Origin: Candidatus Aenigmatarchaeota archaeon | GTDB taxonomy: Archaea > Aenigmatarchaeota > Aenigmatarchaeia > QMZP01 | Direction: 5' to 3' | Assembly (NCBI GenBank): GCA_043824495.1 | Contig: JBDRSV010000015.1 | Span: forward strand, 32,979 to 96,978 | DNA: 64,000 nt | Shown here: one piece after another, positions 7,664 to 33,213 of the stretch | Position numbering within the stretch: the first letter of the stretch is position 1 | Layout of the letters: each line of letters begins with the position of its first letter | Notes under the pieces: generated by a model | Told to the model about the DNA's origin: nothing | Databases searched by the model: none | Seen by the model: the letters and a program-made list of their open reading frames with translations, nothing else | Position numbers and translations under genes: made by a program

Positions 7664-8008
7664 ATGAAAGAGCTTCACTGCGCTGTTTTTATTGTGAGTA
7701 GAAAAAAAGGAATTCCTATTGGGAATAAGAAAGAATATTTCCAGGATGGTTACTTATTTCATATAGGAGAAAAGGAAGCAATTGATAAACTTGCCAAATC
7801 AACAACAATAATTTTCAGAAGACCTTACAAGACCAGATCAAATGTAAAATGTACAATAAACAAGAGAATAGAAAAATTTGCAGATAAACATATAGAGGGA
7901 TTCGAACCAAAGGATTGCGACTGTAAAAGTCATCTACATTTCTCTAGAGAAAATCCATTGGAAGAACCAGAATTCCATGACAATATCTACCTTAGAGAGG
8001 AAGATTAA
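7664..8008 (+). CDS. Hypothetical protein
   Basis: ORF directly after nth; ATG at 7664 chosen to avoid a long overlap; Cys/His-containing. Confidence 0.5.
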   Translation: MKELHCAVFIVSRKKGIPIGNKKEYFQDGYLFHIGEKEAIDKLAKSTTIIFRRPYKTRSNVKCTINKRIEKFADKHIEGFEPKDCDCKSHLHFSRENPLEEPEFHDNIYLREED

Positions 8009-8762
8009 ACGCCTTGATAGCGTTTTCTGTGGTTTGTTTTAGAACTTCCTCAGCTGTGATATCTTTTATCTTAGCTATTTTCTCAGCAGATAACTTGATA
8101 TTCCAAGGAGTGTTTTGCTTTCTTTCTCTATCAGGATCTAAAAAAGGAGCATCAGTTTCCAAGAACATTTGTTCTAGAGGAACAACTTTAGCTATTTTCT
8201 TAATATTCTTTGAGAAGCAAACTTGAGTAGAAACAGATACCCAGAAGCCTGCTTCCACAATCCTTTTAGCAAGATCTGAAGATCCAGAAAAACAATGAAA
8301 TATAGCTTGCACTCCAGCATCTTTTACAGCTTCAAAGCATTCTACTTCAGCATCCCAGGAATGTATTACTATAGGCTTGTTTATTTCTTTGGCTAGTTGA
8401 ATAAATTCTTCGAATTCTTTTCTTTGGATCTCTCTTTTGCTAGGTTCTTCTACCCAGTGGAAATCCATACCAACCTCACCAATTCCAACAATTAGATTCT
8501 TATTCTCTTTTATCAGTTTGATTATTCCATCCTTGTTATTACCTTCAACAGGATGATAACCAAGGGTAGGAAATACAAAACCAGGATGTTTCTTAGAAAG
8601 TTCTAGAACAGCTAGTCCTTCTTCATACCTAGCAGAAGAAGCTACTATAGCTTTCATTTCTTTCTTAGCTTGTTCTACTATTTTGTCTACATCTTCGTAG
8701 CCTTTTACTCCATCGCCATCAGATGGAAAGCACATGTGTGCATGAATATCTATCCCTAACAT
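7992..8762 (-). CDS. tatD: TatD family metal-dependent DNase
   Basis: DIHAH, GEVGMD, HSW, HCFSG and ETDAP motifs. Confidence 0.92.
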   Translation of the reverse strand: MLGIDIHAHMCFPSDGDGVKGYEDVDKIVEQAKKEMKAIVASSARYEEGLAVLELSKKHPGFVFPTLGYHPVEGNNKDGIIKLIKENKNLIVGIGEVGMDFHWVEEPSKREIQRKEFEEFIQLAKEINKPIVIHSWDAEVECFEAVKDAGVQAIFHCFSGSSDLAKRIVEAGFWVSVSTQVCFSKNIKKIAKVVPLEQMFLETDAPFLDPDRERKQNTPWNIKLSAEKIAKIKDITAEEVLKQTTENAIKAFNLPL

Positions 8763-8791: not shown

Positions 8792-9211
8792 TTATTCTGA
8801 TTCTTCGTCACTCCGGAACAAATTACCTGCATATTCAAGACCATGTCCTGCAATGCAGATTCCTGCAGGAAGTAATATGCCTGTAAAGAAGTCGCCGTCA
8901 GTTGCACTAGATAAAAAGGGAGCCGCAATAGGTGCAAGTCTAGCAATTCTGCCTGTGTGCTCAAGAAAATTTGGATCGTCTCCAACTTCTCTGTATTGTC
9001 TCACAGTGTTGAGAACCTCACCAGCGCCATATATGGCAAACATGTCATCTATAGAAGCTGTTAAATCTCTTCCTATATCACCTATTACTTCATATAAAAC
9101 ATGATCTCTAACACCATGATACCACTCAATAGCACTAACAGTTACTCCTAGTGCTCCCCCCACTCTAACTAAGTTTCCAGTATTTTCCCATAATTTTTTA
9201 CCAAAAGACAT
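8792..9211 (-). CDS. Hypothetical protein with Gly/Ala-rich hydrophobic helices
   Basis: 139-aa ORF co-oriented with tatD; no family recognised. Confidence 0.5.
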   Translation of the reverse strand: MSFGKKLWENTGNLVRVGGALGVTVSAIEWYHGVRDHVLYEVIGDIGRDLTASIDDMFAIYGAGEVLNTVRQYREVGDDPNFLEHTGRIARLAPIAAPFLSSATDGDFFTGILLPAGICIAGHGLEYAGNLFRSDEESE

Positions 9212-9393
9212 AAGATCACATAAGAAGACTGTACTGACTGTTTATATAGTTTATCCATGTTTATTCTTCTAAACTTAAAAGATGATGATCTCCGGCCTGA
9301 GATCAAAACAGCGTGCATGAAACCCTATAAAAAGGAGAAATTAAATATAAACAAGTCTTTTTAAACAGCAAACCAATTCTAAATGGGTTGTGC

Positions 9394-12300
9394 ATGAAAA
9401 AGAGAATAAAAATGAGTTTTTTAAATAACTCTTTATTCGTACTTGTTGCACTAACAGTCACGATCCTACTAATTACACAGCATAGCCTAGCTCTCTCTTA
9501 CCAGAAAGTAAACATAGGAGATAATAAAATCCAAATACAGAATAATCTAGGAGCTCCAGTACTTGATATTCAATTAATAGAAAATACAGATCAATGTATC
9601 GTGAATTGCCATGCAACACTGAAAATACATCCGTACCAGACTTATAACATTCCAGACTACTCTTCTCCAAGCGAGAAATGGGATTTTGTAAAGGCCGATT
9701 CGAATGTCATGGGTTTGAAGTCCTACACATTACAATTATTGAAAAATATTACTTATAACATCACAGTTCCGACAATCTCCAATACAAGTTACAGTTGCTT
9801 TAATAACATAACGCAACAAAACGAAACCTGCCAGATTCTGGAACAGATAGGAGTACAAACAGAGACACGGACAAGAGAAGAATGGGTACCATTTAACTGG
9901 TTCGGGGAAACCCTTGAGCAAGGCAGGGACTACTACATAAAACTAAGTGCACAGAAATCTCCATCTTTAGGCGAAAACAACATAGACTGGGTTCCTACAA
10001 TAAAAGGCGTGACCCTAGACGACTGGGCCTGGTGGAATTCTAGCTGGTTTAACAGGAGGAATATAACCATATCAGAAAACAACATATCTACAAGAACAGC
10101 TGAACCAGTAACGCTGAATGTAACAGGATTGACAATAAATACAACATGCGAAAATGAGATACGAATAACAAACGAAACAGACGATGAAATTCCTGTCCAG
10201 ATAGTTAATTCAACTGGAGAATCAGAACCAGCAGGACGTCAATGGTGTGAAATTATTTTTGAGGCCACAGTAGATAAAAATAAATCTGTTGATTATTTTG
10301 TTTACTATAATAACCCTTCAGCTGCGCTTTCAACACTAACGTACATATCATTTAATTTCACTGAAAACAGATTCACAGGAAGAGATTATGAAGTAATTCT
10401 AAGTAAACCAACAAACAGCCTACAAGTTCTAAGGGATAAAAACAATATAAACTGGAGTAGTAACAACAATACAATATATCTTGTGGGTGAGAGTACAGTT
10501 CAATATGCTGCAGGAGATTCTATAACAGACGGTAATGCTACGTGGACAGACTGTGGTAATGTAAGGTGCATGATAAACTGGACAAAACTGAGTACAGAGG
10601 GAGAATATACACTTTACTCACAAAAGATAGTCACAAACATCACTTCCAACATAACCTTCATGTATGGCCCATACACATCAAGTACGTCCAGCCATCCACT
10701 AGGAAACGACGATTACGTCTGCTCCTCGGTAATAGACTGTGTTCAGTATGTTGGCTCACCTCCTCGACATACATATGTTTCTGACTGGAAGTCATGGTTT
10801 TGGAAAGACAATACAGATATAAAATACGTGGTTGCCTGTGATACTGGTCCCCATCTAACTAGAATATCCTCCAATCCCGCAGAATTTACTGTCATTCGAG
10901 GTGGCTGGACAACGGATTATCACCTAAGTCCAGGATCATACAGAATGATCCACGAATTTATTAATGGAACCCCGCAGAACGCAGAAGACAAGATTGGCGA
11001 ACTGGAAGCAATGTTTGCCAATCCTCTATCTGTCCAATTAGGCCCAGAACAAACAGGCAACGGAACCCTGTTCATCACGGATCTTATTCCAATCCAGGTA
11101 GTGGAAGACGTGGATATGGTGAAAGGGAAGACAACCATGATAAGATCAACAATCAGTTTCTATCACCCAAATCCTAACCTGACGGCCAATATAACGGTAA
11201 AAACACACTGGAACGGCAGCCTGGTTAATACAACAAACATAACACTTACCGACGGTCAATCAAAAAATATAAACCACTGGTACACTCCAGGTCAGTCAGG
11301 CACAGACATAGAGGTGAAATCAACAGCAGAAACTACAATATCATACACTTTCATCAATGACACAAGAACAACCAGCGTTGATGTTGTGGAGACGAGGAAG
11401 TTTACAGTTGATTTCATTCCAGTTGATGATCCCGAATATTTTGATTTCACAGTTGACGAATCTATACTTTTCATGAATAAAACATATCCTTTAGCAGATG
11501 ATGCCATTAAAAATTTAACAGTGAAATCAAACCCTGTTAATACGTCTGACATGGACAAAACAGATCCCTTGTTATTCAAGACAGAACTGTTATTAAAAGT
11601 TCGCATGAATAGTCTATTAACAGGAAATTATACAGAAAGGACTGTTGGTATTCTTCCACAATCTTGGTTTTCCGACAATTTAGATGACACAAAAACTCTA
11701 GGCTATGCTATTATTCAAAACTTTCCTCCTATATTTGGCTATCCACCCTTCAAAATAACATTTAATTCGGTTGTTATTGAAGATGCACTTAGATCAGGAG
11801 CTGCACACGAGCTCGGTCATACATTTGGTTTATGCGATGAATATAACTCTTCATTATGGGAAGAACAGGATTCGCTTTTTGGATTATTTAATAATTATTG
11901 TCCTAATGGTGATGTGGATGACGACAACTCTTTGGACGATAGATGCTTGGCGGTAATTCCAGGATGTAATGACACAACTTTAGGCGAATTGATACCTTGG
12001 AATTCTAATACTGACACAATAAGCGTTTATAACTTTATGGGAAGCCTCAATTTTCAAGAATCTAGGTGGATAACAAAAGAAAGTTATAACCATCTATTAA
12101 GCTACTTCTCACACTCGACTCCAGAGACCGCATCATCACGACTTCTTGTAAGCGGTTTCTACAATAAAATTGACGGATCCGTAGACTTCAGAAATTTTTA
12201 CCAGTTGGGGGAGGGACTAATAGAAAATGAGAGTGAATTTGCAACTGGCAATTTCTCCATAGAATCCTTGGACGCAAATGCTACAGCTTTATTTAACATA

Positions 12301-13038
12301 AGTTTCAACCTGTCCTTTATACTAAGCTCAGCCAATGGCACTGTTGAAAATATAAACGTTACTCCATTCGCTTTTGTTGTCCCGTTTTCGGATAATGTGA
12401 GCAGCCTGACATTCAAAGAAAACGCTACAATAAAAGAAGAAAGGGACAGGACACAAAACACACCTAATGTGACACTAATCGAGCCTACTGGAGGAGAATT
12501 CTATTCAAATGTAGAAATAAACATTTCTTGGACTTCTTCTGACGCTGACGGTGATAACATGAGCTATGCTATTTTATTCAGTCCAGACAATGGAACCTCT
12601 TGGGACACTATAACTTTTGATCACAACGAAACAAACTACACTATAAATTCTGGTGACCTACAAGACTGCACAGAATGCCTCATTAAAATACTAGCAACTG
12701 ACGGAATGAATACAGGAAATGATACAAGCGATTCCGTATTTCAAATAGACAATGATTTGAGCATTACCGAGTTTTCTCTCGTATACTCAAACAACACAGA
12801 GCGTGTTTTCAGAATATCTGTAAACAATACTCTTGACCTTGACATTACAAACATTTCTTGGATTTTAGATACAGGAGACGAGGCTATTAATTCTCAATAC
12901 TTGACTAACTTAGAGGTGGGAGAAGACATTTTCATTTTCGTGCATTATAATTATACAGTTATTGGAAATTATACAGTCATTTTCACAGCTTACACAAACG
13001 AGCACATAGAAAAGGAGGAGATCGAGGTTATAATTTAA
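9394..13038 (+). CDS. Large secreted glycoprotein: DUF2341-like region, metzincin-like Zn-metalloprotease domain, C-terminal Ig/CARDB-like domains
   Basis: Signal peptide; WWNSSWFNRRNITI (DUF2341-like start); HELGHTFGLCDEY at 11806-11820 with a downstream NFMG Met-turn; many N-x-S/T sequons. Confidence 0.75.
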   Translation: MKKRIKMSFLNNSLFVLVALTVTILLITQHSLALSYQKVNIGDNKIQIQNNLGAPVLDIQLIENTDQCIVNCHATLKIHPYQTYNIPDYSSPSEKWDFVKADSNVMGLKSYTLQLLKNITYNITVPTISNTSYSCFNNITQQNETCQILEQIGVQTETRTREEWVPFNWFGETLEQGRDYYIKLSAQKSPSLGENNIDWVPTIKGVTLDDWAWWNSSWFNRRNITISENNISTRTAEPVTLNVTGLTINTTCENEIRITNETDDEIPVQIVNSTGESEPAGRQWCEIIFEATVDKNKSVDYFVYYNNPSAALSTLTYISFNFTENRFTGRDYEVILSKPTNSLQVLRDKNNINWSSNNNTIYLVGESTVQYAAGDSITDGNATWTDCGNVRCMINWTKLSTEGEYTLYSQKIVTNITSNITFMYGPYTSSTSSHPLGNDDYVCSSVIDCVQYVGSPPRHTYVSDWKSWFWKDNTDIKYVVACDTGPHLTRISSNPAEFTVIRGGWTTDYHLSPGSYRMIHEFINGTPQNAEDKIGELEAMFANPLSVQLGPEQTGNGTLFITDLIPIQVVEDVDMVKGKTTMIRSTISFYHPNPNLTANITVKTHWNGSLVNTTNITLTDGQSKNINHWYTPGQSGTDIEVKSTAETTISYTFINDTRTTSVDVVETRKFTVDFIPVDDPEYFDFTVDESILFMNKTYPLADDAIKNLTVKSNPVNTSDMDKTDPLLFKTELLLKVRMNSLLTGNYTERTVGILPQSWFSDNLDDTKTLGYAIIQNFPPIFGYPPFKITFNSVVIEDALRSGAAHELGHTFGLCDEYNSSLWEEQDSLFGLFNNYCPNGDVDDDNSLDDRCLAVIPGCNDTTLGELIPWNSNTDTISVYNFMGSLNFQESRWITKESYNHLLSYFSHSTPETASSRLLVSGFYNKIDGSVDFRNFYQLGEGLIENESEFATGNFSIESLDANATALFNISFNLSFILSSANGTVENINVTPFAFVVPFSDNVSSLTFKENATIKEERDRTQNTPNVTLIEPTGGEFYSNVEINISWTSSDADGDNMSYAILFSPDNGTSWDTITFDHNETNYTINSGDLQDCTECLIKILATDGMNTGNDTSDSVFQIDNDLSITEFSLVYSNNTERVFRISVNNTLDLDITNISWILDTGDEAINSQYLTNLEVGEDIFIFVHYNYTVIGNYTVIFTAYTNEHIEKEEIEVII

Positions 13039-13055
13039 GGTAAAGGTGATATGAC

Positions 13056-13427
13056 ATGAAAAATTTATTAGTTGTTATAGGGATATTGGCAATTGTTGTC
13101 ACGTCCGGTTGCACAACAATCCCACCAGAGTGCCCTGATATGGGCTATAGTGAGTATGGAAAAACAGGAATAAGCATCTCTACTAACATACAAGCCCTGA
13201 ATGTTATGAAGGAGTATATGAATTCCACAAATATAGCATTCTATGGGAGCATTAAAAATCATGTTCCGGAGGACATGAAATATAAAGAGATAAGAACAGT
13301 ATATGGAATTTACGATGACGGCGGCCTGGTTGACTCACTAGAAACTGAAATCTATGCGTGGGTATTGAACAATAAGTTTGCAATAGATCAAAATGGAACC
13401 GTGCATGAACATGTAGGTTGTGCTTAA
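13056..13427 (+). CDS. Small lipoprotein-like protein, PepSY-like (array partner A)
   Basis: Lipobox-like VVTSGC; ends FAIDQNGTVHEHVGCA; paralogous to 15399-15746 and 16173-16553. Confidence 0.6.
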   Translation: MKNLLVVIGILAIVVTSGCTTIPPECPDMGYSEYGKTGISISTNIQALNVMKEYMNSTNIAFYGSIKNHVPEDMKYKEIRTVYGIYDDGGLVDSLETEIYAWVLNNKFAIDQNGTVHEHVGCA

Positions 13428-13467
13428 CTGATAAAATTAGAACTGTAGTTGGTAAAGAAGGTGTAAA

Positions 13468-15381
13468 ATGGAAAAATCAAAAGTCCAAGTAGTGGAAAAC
13501 GTGGACATGGTTAAAGGAAAAACCACTCTCATTAGAGTTATTGTTTCCTTTGTTGCAAATGACACAAACGCAACTATCATACCCAATGTAACCATCCACT
13601 GGAATGATACACTGATTAGATATAACGACACTCAAAACATGTCACATGGAGAAGAATTATCATTTGATTTCTGGCACATACCACAGGATGTAGGAGACGT
13701 TGAAGTAATGGCAGAAGTTGAAGGGACGTATGAAGGGGAATATCTGAGTGATAGTAGAGATCATAATGTTGATGTTGTGGAGACACACAAATTGAATATA
13801 GGTTTCGTACCAGTGGACTGGGAGCCTCAACTAAATTTTAATGCTTATAAGAAAGATGTTTTACAATTTATGAATAGTACATATCCATTATCAGACGATG
13901 GTTTTAATATAACTGACCATGCTGAAATTGCCACTGCACCAGTGGTTGGTGTGCCATTTGTTCCTGCTCTTCTTTTGCAAATTAGAGGAGCAACACAACT
14001 GTCCTCTAATGAATACCCAGACAGATCTGTCGGTATTGTTCCCCCAAGCTGGTTTTTCCAACATGGTCTTGGGAACTCAAAAGGGTTTGCAATTTCTTCA
14101 AGATTGTTGCAATATGCATTTCCTGCAGTTGTATTAGAAGCAGGACGTCAGGAATTACTTGCACATGAAATTGGTCATACATATTTCTTGTGTGACGAAA
14201 ATGTATCAGAGTGGAATGACCAGAATACAGAAACATTATCTGATAATCTTTGCCCGAACGGTGATTCAAATCCAGACGATGAAATTTTGGATTTGGAATG
14301 TCAAACAAATAAAGGTTGTCCAACAGAAACAATAAAGGAGCTGATTCCTTGGCCAGGTTCAAACGGCTCAGAAATGAAAAATTTCATGGGTTATCATGAA
14401 AACCAGTTTACAAAATGGGTCTCAAGCAATACATATAATCATCTTATTAATATGCTAAAGAACTCAACACCTGATTTTTCTACTTCAAGAATTTTAGTAA
14501 GCGGATTCTACAATAAAAGTTCAGAAAAAGCTGATTTCCAGAATTTCTACATTTTAGGGGATGGTTTTGTTGAAAACAAAAGCCAAATATCTGGAAATTT
14601 CTCAATAGAAATGCTTGATAATCAAAGTAATATGATTTATAATATAACCTTCCCTCTCGCTTTCTTCATTACTTTATATAATGGAAGTAGTATAGAGACC
14701 AATGTAACACCATTTATTTTTGCACTACCGTTGGAATCCAATATTTCTCAAATAAATTTTGTGGAAAACGATACTATAAAAGATCAGGTTAATAAATCTT
14801 TTAATCCACCATCTATCAACATCACTTTCCCAAATGGTGGTGAATTATTCAATAACCAAGAAATAAACATATCTTGGGAAGCAAACGATTCTGATGGTGA
14901 TAATTTGACTTTTTCGGTTTTGATAAGTAATGATGGTATTAATTATAATACAATTGCCTATGATACAAACCAAACATTCTTTATATACAATTCAACAAGC
15001 TTAGCAGATGGCAAGGAGTATCTAGTAAAGGTATTAGTATCAGATGGCTTTAATACAAACAATGATACAAGTGATAATGTATTCGAAATAGACAATGACT
15101 TAAACATAACAGAACTTTCTGTTATATATGAAAACAGTACAGAAAGGATGTTCAGATTTGTCATAAACAATACTCTAGGTTCTAATATAAGTAATATTTC
15201 ATTTAGTTTAGATACTGGAGAAATCACAGAATATTCACAGTATAGTATAACTCTCCGAGGAGGAGAGGACATATTTGTTTATGTTTATTACAACTATACT
15301 GTTACTGGTATTTATACTGTTATAGCTACTGCCAGAAGCGGCGAATTTGTTGAAGTTGAAAGTATGAATATTGGAGTTTAA
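13468..15381 (+). CDS. N-terminally truncated paralog of 9394-13038 (metalloprotease plus C-terminal domains, no signal peptide)
   Basis: Begins VQVVENVDMVKGKTTLIR, matching internal IQVVEDVDMVKGKTTMIR of the first gene. HEIGHTYFLCDE at 14164-14178. Own SD (AAGGTG) before the ATG, with an in-frame stop just upstream. Confidence 0.75.
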   Translation: MEKSKVQVVENVDMVKGKTTLIRVIVSFVANDTNATIIPNVTIHWNDTLIRYNDTQNMSHGEELSFDFWHIPQDVGDVEVMAEVEGTYEGEYLSDSRDHNVDVVETHKLNIGFVPVDWEPQLNFNAYKKDVLQFMNSTYPLSDDGFNITDHAEIATAPVVGVPFVPALLLQIRGATQLSSNEYPDRSVGIVPPSWFFQHGLGNSKGFAISSRLLQYAFPAVVLEAGRQELLAHEIGHTYFLCDENVSEWNDQNTETLSDNLCPNGDSNPDDEILDLECQTNKGCPTETIKELIPWPGSNGSEMKNFMGYHENQFTKWVSSNTYNHLINMLKNSTPDFSTSRILVSGFYNKSSEKADFQNFYILGDGFVENKSQISGNFSIEMLDNQSNMIYNITFPLAFFITLYNGSSIETNVTPFIFALPLESNISQINFVENDTIKDQVNKSFNPPSINITFPNGGELFNNQEINISWEANDSDGDNLTFSVLISNDGINYNTIAYDTNQTFFIYNSTSLADGKEYLVKVLVSDGFNTNNDTSDNVFEIDNDLNITELSVIYENSTERMFRFVINNTLGSNISNISFSLDTGEITEYSQYSITLRGGEDIFVYVYYNYTVTGIYTVIATARSGEFVEVESMNIGV

Positions 15382-15398
15382 TGAGAGGAGGCGAGAAG

Positions 15399-15746
15399 AT
15401 GGAAAAGTATGCTAAAATTGCTATAATAATAGTTGCTGCTTTAGTATTAATCATAAGCGCTATCTTTTATGGCAATTTTCCTAAATGTGCTGGAGACCTT
15501 CGTTTTACTGAAATTGTAGATTTAAACAGATCTATAAACAATTCAGAAGAAGCGTACAATGCTTTTAATGAGTTCTATAAAACACATAAAGGAAGATATG
15601 CACATGAATACGGTTTACAAAAAGAAGACATAGAGTTTAAAGAAATAACAGTTGAAAATGGTTCTCAGGTCTCTGCTTGGGTACTAATAACAGATGAAGC
15701 CGTGGATAATTTAGGAAAAATATATGTACAAGAATATTGTGCTTAA
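15399..15746 (+). CDS. Small membrane-anchored PepSY-like protein (array partner B)
   Basis: SD GAGGAGG before ATG 15399; N-terminal TM; ends AVDNLGKIYVQEYCA. Confidence 0.6.
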   Translation: MEKYAKIAIIIVAALVLIISAIFYGNFPKCAGDLRFTEIVDLNRSINNSEEAYNAFNEFYKTHKGRYAHEYGLQKEDIEFKEITVENGSQVSAWVLITDEAVDNLGKIYVQEYCA

Positions 15747-15748
15747 AT

Positions 15749-16156
15749 ATGAAAATTTTAACAATTAATAGCTTGGAAGGAGAAGGCAAATCTTATATGG
15801 GTAGAATATTAGCAACAGACGGGATGAATACAGGCAATGATACGAGCAATACTATATTTGAAATAGACAACGATTTGAATATAACAGAATTCTCTGATGT
15901 ATATTCAAATAACACAGAACGTGTTTTTAGGGTATTTGTGAACAATACACTCGATATCAACATTACAAACATTTCCTGGTCTTTGGACACAGGAGAGGAC
16001 ATGAAAAGTTCAGAATATCTAGGTAATCTAAAACCAAGTGAACAGGTCTTCATTTACGTGTATAATAATTATACATTAACGGGTAACTATACAGTAATTA
16101 TGTCCGTGTATACGGACGAATATTTAGAAAAGGATGAAATTGAGATTATAGTTTAA
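15749..16156 (+). CDS. Stand-alone C-terminal fragment of the metalloprotease protein (third, shortest copy)
   Basis: ILATDGMNTGNDTS...IDNDLNITEFS..YSNNTERVF closely matches the C-terminus of 9394-13038 at protein and DNA level. Confidence 0.7.
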   Translation: MKILTINSLEGEGKSYMGRILATDGMNTGNDTSNTIFEIDNDLNITEFSDVYSNNTERVFRVFVNNTLDINITNISWSLDTGEDMKSSEYLGNLKPSEQVFIYVYNNYTLTGNYTVIMSVYTDEYLEKDEIEIIV

Positions 16157-16172
16157 AGAGAGGCAGTGTAAG

Positions 16173-16553
16173 ATGGAGAACATAAAATTTGGAAGTTTAG
16201 TAATGATTGTTATTGGAATAGTAATAGTAGCGGGTATTTATGTAAGCCAATATATACCGCTCCCTAAAGAACCTGAAATACCCGGATTAATACTACCTGG
16301 TGACTGCAATTATTTTGGTATAATACACGAAACAGAGATAAACAAAACACTAAAAACAAGAGAAGATGCCTTAGAAGCGTTAGAATTTGTATATAGAAAG
16401 TTTAATACTACCTCTAATTTAACTGCTGATGATCTGGAATTTAAAAACATCATAGTAGAAGGCAAAGAAATCAGTGGATGGAGAATAATACCCTTAGATC
16501 CAGCGTTTATAGATAAGGATGGTAATGCTTGGGGAAACTACACATGTTTATAA
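16173..16553 (+). CDS. Small membrane-anchored PepSY-like protein (array partner C)
   Basis: N-terminal TM; LKTREDALEAL helix; ends FIDKDGNAWGNYTCL. Confidence 0.6.
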   Translation: MENIKFGSLVMIVIGIVIVAGIYVSQYIPLPKEPEIPGLILPGDCNYFGIIHETEINKTLKTREDALEALEFVYRKFNTTSNLTADDLEFKNIIVEGKEISGWRIIPLDPAFIDKDGNAWGNYTCL

Positions 16554-16555
16554 AT

Positions 16556-16981
16556 ATGAAATCATCAACAAAAACCACAATCGGAATCATTGGAATTTTG
16601 TTACTTTTGTTTAGTCTGCAGGTTATTGCGGACCCGATAGACTTGGGTAGAGAAGAAATCAAGGATTATTATTGGATGACTGTTTGTGGAGATAATCAGG
16701 AAATAAACCTAGATACAGAAAGTGCAGAAGAATATTGTTTGGCAGAAGAGGATGGAGTTCCAACAAACTGCACTAAAATTCAAGAGATTTATGTAGAATC
16801 TTTAGAGACAAATCAGTCTCGTCCAGAATGCATAAATGAAATTACAGGAGATGATGGAAACACTTCTATAGAGTATGATGTTGACTGCATAATGGAAACA
16901 TGTAGTGAGTTAATAGAATTCAATCAATTGACAGGAGAGACTAGATCAGTATGGACAAAAAAATATGGTTGGTCATTATAG
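16556..16981 (+). CDS. Secreted Cys-containing acidic hypothetical protein
   Basis: Signal peptide MKSSTKTTIGIIGILLLLFSLQVIA; six Cys in the mature part. Confidence 0.55.
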   Translation: MKSSTKTTIGIIGILLLLFSLQVIADPIDLGREEIKDYYWMTVCGDNQEINLDTESAEEYCLAEEDGVPTNCTKIQEIYVESLETNQSRPECINEITGDDGNTSIEYDVDCIMETCSELIEFNQLTGETRSVWTKKYGWSL

Positions 16982-18357
16982 TAATTATCAGCCTAATGGT
17001 AGTTGCAAGCATACAAGAATCAACATCAACAGGAGAATCATCAGGCATGATTCTATTCTGGGACGGAATTGAAGCTACAGTGCCATCAGAATGGAGTGTT
17101 GTGAGCAAAGACATATGCCCAATGGGCCAGGGATGGTGTAATGACTTCTACAACAGGACCATAAACATATCATCAGCATACGGAACTGAAGGCGGTTCGG
17201 ATACATATACAGGAACAGTTTCACATGTTATATCACAACCTAGTGTTACAAGAAAAATAGATCCCGGAACACCTAACGGGTTTAATGTGGCTTCTGCAAC
17301 TCATACAGGAACGCTGACATCTGAAATACCTGCAAATACAAGTATACCTCCTGTAAGGAACCTTATCATAATAAGGTATGACAATGGAATGCCAGACATG
17401 ATACCAGCAGGTGCTATAGCGTTCTTCAATGATACCATACCTCCAGAAAACTGGACGCTGTATACAGAAGGTGATGGTTATTTCTTAAGAGGATCTGATG
17501 CTCCAAACACAACTCTGGGATCATTAACACATACTCACATAAATGCCAATTTCACTCTTATCGGCGGTGGAGCAGCTGTAGGTACAAGTACAGGAACTAC
17601 AGTCCCTACACCATCACATTCTCATGGAACCATAGGAGATCAGAATCTAAGCGAAGAGAATCATATACCTCCTTATGTTGACATGCCCATGATAAAAGCC
17701 ACTGAAGATACTCCTATTCCAATCGGCATGATAGCTGTGTTTAACTCAACTCCTCCAAGTTATTCTTGGGATAATTTAAGCGAGGATCCAAACTTCAACA
17801 ATCATCTAATAAGAATAAACTCTTCTTCTTTCAACACAACAGGAGGATCAGCATATCACCAACACGAAGAGATTAACATAACGTTTGGACAAACCTCGGA
17901 TACCACAAGCAAGAAATATACAAAACTTGGAGGATTTCACATTACAGTGGCAGGAAGAACTCATGGTCATACTGTAAATATAAGCGTGTCCTCACTTAAT
18001 CAACCGGCATATGTAACTGCTATTTTAGGAATATATACAGGCATCATAATAGCCAACGAGTCAGAAGGAAGAGATGCAATAGAAGAAGGCATAAATAATA
18101 CTATACCTAATTCCACTAGATATGAGGATCAGCAGATATATATAATAAACGAGACGGGTGATCACTCTACTGGATTGTTTGACATAGTTACTATAGAAGG
18201 AAACCAGACATGGGCATTCAATTATGTTACAGGAAACGAATCGTTCACGAATGTGAATCCTATACTTACTATTGTTAACATATGGGAATCAGCATCCCTT
18301 GCTTATAGCCAAATAGTTAGCCAGGTAGAAGATCTTATAAATGAGACGAAAGAGTAG
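16951..18357 (+). CDS. Secreted or membrane-anchored protein with three tandem phage tail-collar/fibre-like repeats
   Basis: N-terminal hydrophobic segment. Repeats start GMILFWDG, IPAGAIAFF and IPIGMIAVF, contain FLRG/LIR, GG/GS-x-HxH and later HxH motifs, and end IPPVR, IPPYV and QPAYV. Confidence 0.65.
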   Translation: MDKKIWLVIIVIISLMVVASIQESTSTGESSGMILFWDGIEATVPSEWSVVSKDICPMGQGWCNDFYNRTINISSAYGTEGGSDTYTGTVSHVISQPSVTRKIDPGTPNGFNVASATHTGTLTSEIPANTSIPPVRNLIIIRYDNGMPDMIPAGAIAFFNDTIPPENWTLYTEGDGYFLRGSDAPNTTLGSLTHTHINANFTLIGGGAAVGTSTGTTVPTPSHSHGTIGDQNLSEENHIPPYVDMPMIKATEDTPIPIGMIAVFNSTPPSYSWDNLSEDPNFNNHLIRINSSSFNTTGGSAYHQHEEINITFGQTSDTTSKKYTKLGGFHITVAGRTHGHTVNISVSSLNQPAYVTAILGIYTGIIIANESEGRDAIEEGINNTIPNSTRYEDQQIYIINETGDHSTGLFDIVTIEGNQTWAFNYVTGNESFTNVNPILTIVNIWESASLAYSQIVSQVEDLINETKE

Positions 18358-18435
18358 ATATCCTTTTCCTCGTGTATATCCAGTTTAAGTGTGACCAAAC
18401 ATCACATCCTCAGAAATCAACACAATGTGGCATGT

Positions 18436-19200
18436 TTATTCTTCTAAGAAATAGAATAAAGCCTCTTGTACTGTTGCTATCTCTTTCACTGCAAGTCCAG
18501 CTTCTTCAGCAACATTTACTCTATATGGAACTGTTTCTGTGGTGCAAATCTCTCTTTCACCAATCTTTCTGCATGTTTCTTGTGATCTCTGCTTAATCTC
18601 AGTGGATTGTTGTAGTGGGACTAAAAACAAAATAATACCGTGTTCTTTAGCTACTTTAGCCTTTGCTGTTACTTCACCAATAGGACCAATTGAACCATCA
18701 CTTCTGATAGTTCCAGTCATCATCACGCTTGTGTTTGGAGTTTTATTTGTCAAAGCAGCTACTGTGGCTACAGTTAAAGCAGCTCCAGCTGAACCACCCT
18801 CAATAACAGAAGCATCTGCTTCTATTGTGTATATCATATCATAATTGGATAGATCAGAACCTGTGACCCCACCTGCTATTTGTCTAGAAGTTCTGATAGA
18901 TGTCTGAGTGTCAACCCAGAATAGAATATTATCTATATTTACTAATGGCCTTCCAAAACCAGGAACAATATCCACATTAATTGTGCTTAGTACACCTTCT
19001 TTATTTGAATTAACTGCAGGAACATACATTGTTACAGATGTGTTAGAACCAGTATCATTTGTTGCTATGAAACTCTCAATTGGAGTATCAAAATCAAGAG
19101 TGCCTCCTCTAGGACCGAACAATACATCTGATAGATAAAAAGTTCCTATAAAGTAAATGGCGACAAATGATAGTATAGCTACCACACTTATTACTCTCAT
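18436..19200 (-). CDS. Archaeal Lon-like (S16) serine protease, membrane-anchored
   Basis: GGSAGAALT (catalytic Ser), MTGTIRSDGSIGPIG and TAKAKVA (catalytic Lys). Confidence 0.85.
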   Translation of the reverse strand: MRVISVVAILSFVAIYFIGTFYLSDVLFGPRGGTLDFDTPIESFIATNDTGSNTSVTMYVPAVNSNKEGVLSTINVDIVPGFGRPLVNIDNILFWVDTQTSIRTSRQIAGGVTGSDLSNYDMIYTIEADASVIEGGSAGAALTVATVAALTNKTPNTSVMMTGTIRSDGSIGPIGEVTAKAKVAKEHGIILFLVPLQQSTEIKQRSQETCRKIGEREICTTETVPYRVNVAEEAGLAVKEIATVQEALFYFLEE

Positions 19201-20042: not shown

Positions 20043-20319
20043 AGCAGAGACACGCCTTCAGTGGAAGGTAACCAAATAGAACAGTTAACCAAATTCTATC
20101 CTCCACTCTGCGGACCCCATAAACATTATTTCCACAACTTAGAGCTGCTCCCGTCAAGGTCTGACTCGATTCATTACGTAAACAATCCTATGGGACAGAG
20201 CTTCGCAGTCAAGAACCCGGGCCATTCTATCCAATTACAATCGCCTTCGGGCTTCGACTCCACCATAATGGCGATTTGTGGTAACAGGGAACGCCAAACT
20301 CCCCAGCCTAGTCTCTGCT
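20043..20319 (-). ncRNA. ffs: Archaeal signal recognition particle RNA (7S RNA)
   Basis: Terminal helix AGCAGAGAC/GTCTCTGCT; archaeal Alu-type 5' region CTAGGCTGGGGAGTTTGGCGTTCCCTGTTACC; helix 8 GAGTCAGACCT-TGAC-GGGAGCAGCTC at 20167-20142; about 280 nt. Confidence 0.9.
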
Positions 20320-32889: not shown

Positions 32890-33213
32890 TCAAACCAGTC
32901 TCCAATAAGCCACTTTCCGAGCTGTCATCTTTCTAACCTTCTTGTAACTCACTAGAGCTTTCATTCTATGAAGTATCATTGAAGTGGGCAATCCTGTCAA
33001 TTCACTTATAGTATTTGTGCCTATTGGACGGTTTATCATCTTCAGTAGTTCCATTATATCCCTCTCATGATACCAGTCGTCATCAGGTTCTGTTATTTTT
33101 TCTGCTCGTATCTTATCTTTCTCTTCTGGAGTCATGTTGTTTATTCTTCGCTGAGCCTCTTTCTCAACTTCCTGAGCTATTTGAAGAAGAAGTTGAAGTA
33201 ATGATTTAGTCAT
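32890..33213 (-). CDS. Winged-HTH protein
   Basis: PIGTNTISELTGLPTSMILHRMKAL...KVAYWRL. Confidence 0.65.
   Translation of the reverse strand: MTKSLLQLLLQIAQEVEKEAQRRINNMTPEEKDKIRAEKITEPDDDWYHERDIMELLKMINRPIGTNTISELTGLPTSMILHRMKALVSYKKVRKMTARKVAYWRLV

Follow-up and report, generated by a model that had tools for sequence, protein, structure and literature searches.

A candidate array of orphan cassettes of zincin-like surface protein and small partner genes in an accessory island of a groundwater DPANN-type archaeon

DPANN archaea live attached to other cells, and the way in which their surfaces engage with hosts or rivals is largely obscure. The window analysed in this study is a stretch of 64,000 nucleotides (nt) from a Candidatus Aenigmatarchaeota archaeon (assembly GCA_043824495.1, contig JBDRSV010000015.1, forward strand, positions 32,979–96,978). 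Between positions 9388 and 16553 it contains six close-packed open reading frames (ORFs) on the + strand, in which a gene for a large zincin-like surface protein and two truncated copies of it, designated big, mid and frag, alternate with three small genes, A, B and C. The question raised by this locus is what the truncated copies represent and why each of them is followed by a complete small gene. In a preliminary description of the same DNA, the locus was taken for a polymorphic secreted-protease/inhibitor system with PepSY-like inhibitors. The explanation put forward here, in which our confidence is evenly balanced, is an array of orphan cassettes, derived from a zincin surface protein and its binding partner and carried as cargo of an accessory island in a groundwater DPANN-type archaeon.

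Organisation of the six-gene array

The genes follow one another in the order big, A, mid, B, frag, C. Gaps of 17 nt (big–A), 40 nt (A–mid) and 16 nt (frag–C) separate them, whereas mid and B overlap by 1 nt and B and frag by 10 nt. Their positions, and those of the zincin motifs, are as follows.

9388/9394–13038, + strand: big, full-length secreted multi-domain surface protein, ATG at 9394, 1216 aa
11806–11841, + strand: zincin motif HELGHTFGLCDE of big, residues 807–818 of the 1216-aa frame
13056–13427, + strand: partner A, lipobox-like/anchored ectodomain with two conserved Cys and one lipobox Cys, 123 aa
13468–15381, + strand: mid, 5'-truncated copy beginning in the CARDB-like domain, 637 aa
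14164–14199, + strand: zincin motif HEIGH...CDE of mid, intact
15381–15746, + strand: partner B, transmembrane-anchored ectodomain with two Cys, likely start at 15399, 121 aa
15737–16156, + strand: frag, orphan C-terminal fragment with the end of the fn3-like domain and the PKD-like domain, ATG at 15749, 139 aa
16173–16553, + strand: partner C, transmembrane-anchored ectodomain with two Cys, the most divergent of the three partners, 126 aa

The order given in the preliminary description (large gene, A, truncated copy, B, shorter copy, C) was confirmed by the ORFs and by BLASTP, in which mid aligned with residues 569–1214 of big (43% identity, E 9e-163) and frag with residues 1100–1216 (68% identity, E 6e-52). 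The same description counted three metalloprotease-derived genes, which holds for big and mid, where HExxH is present, but not for frag, which retains the non-catalytic C-terminal domain only. No catalytic domain, signal peptide or Shine–Dalgarno (SD)-like motif was found in frag and, since it carries no catalytic domain, C has no cognate protease domain with which to pair. Identity of mid with big is 58% (70/120) over the final ~120 aligned columns, versus 41% (199/484) upstream.

The frame of mid is intact and is preceded by the SD-like motif AAGGTG. A read-through or frameshift fusion of A and mid was ruled out, because the frames of the two genes differ and the open stretch upstream of mid is only four codons long. 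B probably starts at its second ATG (15399), just downstream of GAGGAGG, and the 1-nt overlap with mid therefore disappears. The array is not an assembly artefact, since a single Logan contig, built by a different assembler from the same, possibly the source, groundwater run, covers positions 9000–18500 with 0 differences at a depth of ~41. In two metatranscriptome runs of the same study, 0 of the sampled words matched, a result that is neutral on expression.

The genome comprises 1.01 Mb in 29 contigs with a completeness of 80%. Its size, an archaeal signal recognition particle (SRP) RNA in the window and the nearest homologues of the large protein, which come from metagenome-assembled genomes (MAGs) labelled Woesearchaeota, Nanoarchaeota/Nanoarchaeia and Micrarchaeota, agree with the earlier attribution to a DPANN-like archaeon.

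20044–20318, minus strand: archaeal SRP RNA (RF01857, 125.9 bits)

The zincin-like surface protein family

Behind a signal peptide of the Sec type, the large protein has an N-terminal region of ~560 aa that is variable, and then CARDB-like and zincin-like domains; a beta-rich region leads on to an fn3/Big-like domain, and a PKD-like domain forms the C-terminus. The module common to the family measures ~640 residues and runs from the CARDB-like domain through the HExxH/CDE(Y) region, the beta-rich stretch and the fn3/Big-like domain to the PKD-like end. A word-based search retrieved 13 family proteins, mid of the window included, whose N-terminal domains differ (beta-helix/NosD, Kelch, DUF2341 and cohesin). 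In species-representative genomes, a pattern scan picked out 46 loci, mostly from DPANN archaea, together with a few labelled Methanosarcinales, Chloroflexota and others. In the viral contigs searched, no protease relative was found.

The catalytic region contains HExxH followed by CDE(Y), plus three more invariant Cys. Among the 13 aligned sequences, H233, E234, H237, C242 and E244 are invariant and D243 nearly so; the Gly of HExxHxxG varies across the family, and the HExGH string is absent from two of the 13 proteins (P0015 and P0016). The matches to curated models stayed below their cut-offs for the Met-zincin family DUF4953 (19 bits; cut-off 24.2) and for the M6 domain TIGR03296 (20.6 bits; cut-off 110.8). 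Reprolysin_5 matched two of the 13 members (best E 0.0046) and M64 one, and the CARDB-like domain had a weak match in the PDB (E 0.025). The family is thus similar to M6 InhA-like TIGR03296, DUF4953, M12 Reprolysin_5 and M64 proteins in the HExxH motif, the conserved CDE(Y) and an extracellular multi-domain architecture with Ig-like domains, and differs from them in its scores below the curated cut-offs, in the Gly that is not conserved and in the absence of a PDB match to the catalytic region.

With respect to export, the highest hydrophobicity over 19 N-terminal residues was 2.24 in big, 1.21 in mid and 0.19 in frag. Hydrophobic N-termini are found in big, A, B and C (maxima of 2.24–2.89) and not in mid or frag. 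NxS/T sequons exceed expectation in all three copies (56 vs 22.6 in big, 34 vs 10.9 in mid, 8 vs 3.1 in frag), so that mid and frag keep the 2.5- to 3-fold excess typical of exported proteins. The short full-length forms of the family found elsewhere (P0011, P0012 and P0014) carry signal peptides, and the lack of one in mid is therefore a truncation and not the norm of the family.

At 12 of the 46 loci (L012, L013, L016, L018, L020, L025, L027, L028, L029, L036, L037 and L042), the CARDB-like part (profile positions ~14–123) and the zincin part are encoded by separate adjacent genes. The second gene has its own signal peptide and covers the zincin part from profile position ~120–133 onward.

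The small partner family

A and B matched each other in BLASTP (E 3e-6), as did B and C (E 2e-7), at 26–28% identity; A and C had no direct match, and profile search joined all three in one family. Homology of the three proteins, as proposed in the preliminary description, is thereby established, and the motifs that it listed are all present in the alignment: the N-terminal anchor, an early Cys, a helix with (E/Q)A, (E/D)Dx(E/K)(F/Y)K(E/N)I, a Trp, (I/V)DxxG and the penultimate Cys.

A word-based homologue search with A, B and C returned the three window proteins only. An exhaustive HMMER search (1.84 billion representatives, E ≤ 0.001) returned 47 proteins, 44 of them from outside the window, and nearly all members have 100–135 aa. 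In the alignment of 46 rows (A4, in which P0038, P0039 and P0048 are not included), the N-terminal anchor, which is lipobox-like in 15 rows, is followed by a Cys just past it, an N-x-(S/T)-I...EEA helix, a Trp and an AIDxxGxIY block. A Cys is found among the last three residues in 41 of the 46 members; exactly two Cys are present in 24 and three in 17. The family has no name in Pfam or NCBIfam, and a literature search found no published description of it or of the array. Judged from sequence comparison, A, B and C thus represent a real, rare and unnamed family.

A is closest to the external protein P0019 (40% identity), and B to P0018 (59%) and P0017 (52%), the grouping of B with P0017 having a value of 96 in the Shimodaira–Hasegawa-like approximate likelihood ratio test (SH-aLRT). 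The seven external homologues that were looked up lie on contigs of 577–2550 nt. A profile search of the PDB matched only a 13-residue motif resembling a propeller blade of the NHL/'Pizza' type (AIDxxGxIY), which was taken as a short-motif coincidence.

Recurrence of the protease–partner pair

With the profile built from the window proteins only (A1), a partner was found directly downstream of a protease homologue in loci L011 (E 7.5e-11) and L014 (E 4.5e-4). The wider A4 profile added L015 (E 1.2e-8), which is not part of that alignment; L011 and L014 are, and their A4 E-values are therefore circular. A search of the 28 genomes behind the loci revealed a second pair, L104, on another contig of genome G378. 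In these four external pairs the genes overlap or are separated by ≤13 nt. Overall, seven pairs were found in four genomes, four of them in three other DPANN genomes, with constant order and orientation and gaps of ≤17 nt. Because this adjacency recurs, a physical or functional link between the protease and partner families is likely.

Among 371 genomes of the phylum, a near-full-length partner was detected only in the present genome (three), in G252 (E 4.6e-26) and in G071 (E 5.3e-6). No protease homologue was detected in G252 or G071, and neither the partner nor the protease family was detected in G001, of the same genus as the present genome. The pairing is facultative and limited to two clades of the protease tree.

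The accessory island

Comparison of the flanking genes with those of relatives places the array in an inserted accessory island at the 3' end of a Lon_C-like gene. The island and its repeat boundaries are new with respect to the preliminary description. It measures ~9.2 kb (about 9273–18430) and holds exactly eight genes, the six of the array and two more, p150 and p468. The features that delimit and complete it are as follows.

7992–8762: TatD gene, left flank
9256–9272, + strand: left 17-nt direct repeat, perfect
16529–16981, + strand: p150, anchored Cys-rich protein with six Cys, 150 aa, no family match
16951–18357, + strand: p468, anchored sequon-rich protein of 468 aa, last gene of the island
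18431–18447, + strand: right 17-nt direct repeat, perfect, covering the last three codons and the stop of the Lon_C-like gene
18436–19200, minus strand: Lon_C-like gene, right flank

The 1.01-Mb genome contains no copy of the 17-mer other than these two, one at each end of the island; the chance expectation at up to two mismatches is 0.05 matches per window. The distance between TatD and the Lon_C-like gene is 78 nt in G001 (same genus) and 36 nt in G003 (same family), and ~9.7 kb here.

Between TatD and the left repeat there is an ORF of 139 aa without family match (8792–9211, minus strand). The 17-nt repeats do not enclose it, yet it too is absent from the same spot in G001 and G003.

Fragments and divergence of the copies

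A C-terminal protease fragment 3' of a partner gene, comparable to frag, is also present in L014, L015 and L104. It starts at profile positions 536–542 in L015 and L104, and at position 603 in L014, where it is shorter; frag starts at residue 508 of mid, which was judged to be about the same place as the L015 and L104 starts. The fragment of L015 is fused to the end of a p468-like gene, and that of L104 has a degraded end. The fragments of these three loci look like relics, each eroded in a different way. For the junction common to two protease clades, one possibility is a cassette of fixed extent, made up of the last ~140 codons and the partner gene, that would be joined by a single crossover.

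The copies in the window are old. Their DNA identity is 64–79% in the best blocks, the longest exact matches are of 17 nt (big–mid) and 16 nt (big–frag), and the synonymous divergence (dS) is 1.75 (big–frag) or saturated, with a ratio of nonsynonymous to synonymous divergence (dN/dS) of 0.11 between big and frag. Recent gene conversion between the copies was rejected on account of the saturated dS and the longest exact match of 17 nt. The frames are intact despite this saturation, which argues that the truncations are much younger than the divergence of the copies; alternatively, the truncated genes would still be under selection. A recent juxtaposition of long-separated cassettes fits these data better than their persistence as dead genes over a long time. 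The tree built from 29 family members places big and mid within an unresolved group of eight rows (SH-aLRT 91), together with proteins from MAGs labelled Nanoarchaeota, Woesearchaeota and Micrarchaeota.

Proposed function of the array

In the orphan-cassette explanation, the complete unit would consist of the Sec-exported, sequon-rich protein with its HExxH...CDE zincin-like domain and, 17 nt further on, a small partner with two Cys that is membrane-anchored or of the lipoprotein type. Two older units would have lost the 5' end of the protease gene, and with it the export signal, while their partner genes stayed complete; mid keeps the catalytic part and frag the last ~120 residues only. They may be orphaned cassettes, left behind when the protease 3' part and its partner gene were serially replaced or, in the distant past, duplicated. 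Only the first unit would then be able to deliver a protease outside the cell. The partners are predicted to be located at the outer side of the producer's membrane and to bind the adjacent surface protein, and this binding would most likely hold the activity of the protease in check on the producer's own surface. The role of the partners as inhibitors or immunity proteins is speculative. A serious alternative is tethering, in which the partner would bind the conserved C-terminal domain; specificity for the catalytic domain is not required, because frag, which has the C-terminal domain only, travels with C. The partner might also assist the maturation of the protease.

Several observations weigh against the orphan-cassette explanation. 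The catalytic region is not covered by any solved structure in the PDB search and, as the scores of the curated models are also below their cut-offs, the designation zincin-like putative metallopeptidase is set at the level of the motif, supported by sub-threshold matches. With its SD-like motif and intact catalytic motif, mid might be made and have some role of its own. A clade of A, B and C was not rejected by the approximately unbiased (AU) test (p-AU 0.156, with rows P0018 and P0030 left out), a result with which an ancient duplication in situ is compatible. No integrase domain was found in the eight island proteins with Pfam and NCBIfam, the search covering ORFs of at least 50 aa. In addition, the pairing is rare: it was found at three of the 46 genome loci, although at least seven of the first 36 loci end at or just past the protease gene, and at 0 of 80 more distant metagenome loci, and in G252 (79% complete) the partner gene is flanked by genes for an acetyltransferase-like protein and a polytopic membrane protein, with no protease detected. 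The expectation of the preliminary description that the alternating architecture would be found elsewhere is thus sustained by the four pairs in three other DPANN genomes, but is weakened by this rarity and by the partner without a protease.

Relationship of the partners to PepSY domains

The preliminary description regarded the partners as PepSY-like, a view that most of the searches do not support. None of the 46 family members matched Pfam PF03413 (gathering score 24 bits) at E ≤ 0.1, and a six-frame search of the genome with the same model gave no match at E ≤ 0.001. The search works in this clade, since it detected PepSY in four of 21 relatives and in 26 of 301 genomes of the phylum. The profile search of the PDB with the partner family returned no PepSY entry. 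Comparison of the partner-ectodomain profile with an alignment of 35 DPANN PepSY domains by hhalign paired 16 columns, over the helix, at a score of 14.4 (P 0.015, probability 2.9%).

This score exceeded all 150 column shuffles (maximum 13.0) and all 17 unrelated real windows (maximum 13.1), and the forced alignment was colinear, the helix corresponding to the helix, the Trp to the aromatic strand and AIDxxG to IDAxTG. Reciprocal HMM searches between partners and PepSY gave best E-values of 0.013 and 0.0074 (7–8 bits). Of the ESM Atlas models, that of B is poor (mean predicted confidence, pLDDT, 0.52), with proteins related to PepSY, M4 or FTP making up five of its 10 structural neighbours; that of A is better (pLDDT 0.74), and none of its 10 neighbours, all with TM-scores <0.4, is a PepSY protein. 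Taken together, these data give a weak and consistent hint of a PepSY-like layout in the partners, their kinship being unproven.

Among the proteins inspected alongside, that of L057 (contig C7 of genome G010, of the same family as the present genome) is membrane-anchored, with a sub-threshold PepSY domain (23.5 bits) and then a Cys-rich region; among bona fide-like analogues it comes closest to the layout of A, B and C. Another DPANN genome (L058/L083–L086, contig C33 of G135) encodes eight tandem PepSY domains (E 1.8e-17 to 2e-12) in one open frame of ≥800 aa. Many DPANN frames of ~150–190 aa (L059–L081, genome family f14 and others) have a C-terminal PepSY domain and no obvious signal peptide. 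The last are probably the 'double PepSY-like' cluster cls.004634 (PMC6393860) and are separate from the family of A, B and C.

Comparison with known systems

Secreted proteases with an adjacent small inhibitor gene in the same operon, by which the producer is protected, include serralysin/Inh (AprA/AprI), protealysin/emfourin and staphopain/staphostatin. The partners described here differ from these inhibitors in lacking Pfam inhibitor homology, in being membrane-anchored and in being arrayed with truncated protease copies.

Polymorphic toxin systems were defined by Zhang et al. in 2012 (PMC3482391), who describe them as scarce in archaea; PepSY is not mentioned in the first 300,000 characters of the article. 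Bacterial orphan toxin–immunity arrays (CdiA-CT/CdiI, Rhs and effector displacement in the type VI secretion system of Vibrio cholerae; PMC3482391, PMC5361080 and PMC3967940) resemble the present locus: a full-length exported gene is followed by a small gene, 5'-truncated copies without signals each have their own small gene, and the locus is accessory and laterally acquired. The locus differs from polymorphic toxins in that its C-terminal domain is the most conserved part and not a swapped toxin tip, and from their loci in having an archaeal host and copies that are too diverged for ongoing exchange. The polymorphic effector/immunity character attributed to it therefore agrees with the layout, in which small genes lie downstream and truncated cassettes have their own partners, but not with the variable C-terminal tip expected of such systems (58% versus 41% identity, as given above). 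No toxin, trafficking or immunity domain was found in the eight island proteins with Pfam and NCBIfam or in the 46 partners with Pfam; PADLOC was not searched.

Makarova, Wolf and Koonin (2019; PMC6393860) predicted that the DPANN-specific double-PepSY-like cluster cls.004634 inhibits unidentified proteases. The partners resemble PepSY PF03413 proteins, such as the FTP–PepSY modules of M4 peptidases and cls.004634, in being small and presumably extracytoplasmic alpha+beta modules, often membrane-anchored, that adjoin a known or putative zinc protease. In the forced alignment they also share the order of elements (an I-s-x-E-E-A helix, strands with an aromatic residue and an (I/V)Dx(x)TG-like turn). 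On the other hand, they have no significant sequence or profile match to PepSY, their neighbouring protease is not an M4 peptidase, and their two conserved Cys and penultimate-Cys end distinguish them from the 35 aligned DPANN PepSY domains. The cls.004634-type proteins (~150–190-aa frames) are a family different from A, B and C.

Alternative explanations

The polymorphic system envisaged in the preliminary description, in which A, B and C would be cognate-specific, PepSY-like inhibitors of secreted proteases directed against hosts or competitors, for example against their S-layers, is in our opinion unlikely. The layout of the array matches that of orphan effector/immunity loci, and the partners are anchored at the surface, the place at which a producer would have to inhibit its own secreted protease for protection. 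The weak but consistent PepSY signal (the hhalign score above all controls, with colinear helix, Trp and IDxxG turn) and the neighbours of the Atlas model of B point the same way, as does the proposal (PMC6393860) that PepSY-like proteins inhibit unidentified DPANN proteases. However, Pfam PepSY is found in none of the 46 members and nowhere in the genome; the hhalign probability is very low over few columns and the reciprocal searches reach only 7–8 bits; and the favourable Atlas model is the poor one, the better model of A having no PepSY neighbour. The conservation of the C-terminal domain, where variability would be expected, the absence from frag of a protease domain for C, the fact that the zincin is not an M4 peptidase and the rarity of the pairing also count against such a system, as does the reported scarcity of classical polymorphic toxins and of their immunity families among archaea (PMC3482391). 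A bolder version appears more doubtful again: A, B and C would be a new class of membrane-anchored inhibitor or immunity protein for a DPANN-specific secreted zincin, incoming cassettes of the protease 3' part and partner would displace older ones at fixed junctions, and the orphan immunity genes would guard against the proteases of neighbours. If this were true, the island would be an archaeal counterpart of bacterial effector–immunity loci, and no earlier description would exist, for ultrasmall archaea, of a system of antagonism or host attack that is based on a protease and switches cassettes.

A tandem duplication in place, with later 5' deletion of the downstream protease genes and retention of the small genes for a function unrelated to the protease, is likewise improbable. 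It would account for big, mid and frag being mutually best full-length matches and for the clade of A, B and C that the AU test does not reject; tandem or fragmentary protease copies without partners occur in L008, L022 and L028, a lone partner homologue occurs in G252, and the fragments of L014, L015 and L104 are eroded in different ways. It does not readily explain why the frames of mid (637 codons) and of frag (139 codons) have stayed open although dS is saturated, or why independent arrays in two protease clades have nearly the same fragment start; and two rare families are unlikely to be adjacent in four genomes (seven pairs), always in one order and orientation, if no functional link exists between them. 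Of very low probability, in our view, is a role of mid and frag as silent donors, without promoter or signal, for gene conversion into big, in the manner of pilS or vls-type cassettes. The truncated copies do begin at conserved blocks and lack signals, and the surface proteins of an episymbiont are plausible targets of variation. Nevertheless, exact matches of at most 16–17 nt and 64–79% DNA identity in the best blocks are too low for efficient exchange, there are only two donors, with complete partner genes interleaved, and no variants or joints were seen at the read level in one DNA run, a comparison in which contigs drop rare variants.

The locus provides a defined, unnamed family of small surface proteins, its recurrent physical link to a widespread DPANN family of zincin-like surface proteins and a clean island with putative orphan cassettes. 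A few recombinant domains would suffice for a direct test of the hypothesis of a protease plus a surface partner. If the partners are inhibitors, they would be candidates for the 'missing protease/inhibitor' relationships suspected for DPANN PepSY-like proteins (PMC6393860); if they are not, the locus is still instructive as a case of cassette turnover within a streamlined genome.

Other genes associated with the protease family

The last ~100 aa of p468 form a conserved domain (30–57% identity) that was also found directly beside protease genes in 11 other loci, in proteins of ~480–670 aa and in the L015 fragment fusion. The p468-like genes include those at L008 (2552–4081), L009 (1081–2592), L010 (5041–6558), L014 (11208–12845) and L037 (10185–12008), among others, and those of L008, L009 and L010 are immediately upstream of the protease gene. 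This suggests that p468-like proteins and the protease form a recurrent two-protein surface module in DPANN archaea; the zincin protein belongs to a looser recurrent cluster of DPANN surface proteins.

A protein of ~90–100 aa with two hydrophobic segments and a basic C-terminal end is encoded 3' of the protease gene in L008 (7484–7753), L010 (9899–10174) and L011 (10314–10622). In L011 it comes after the A-like partner.

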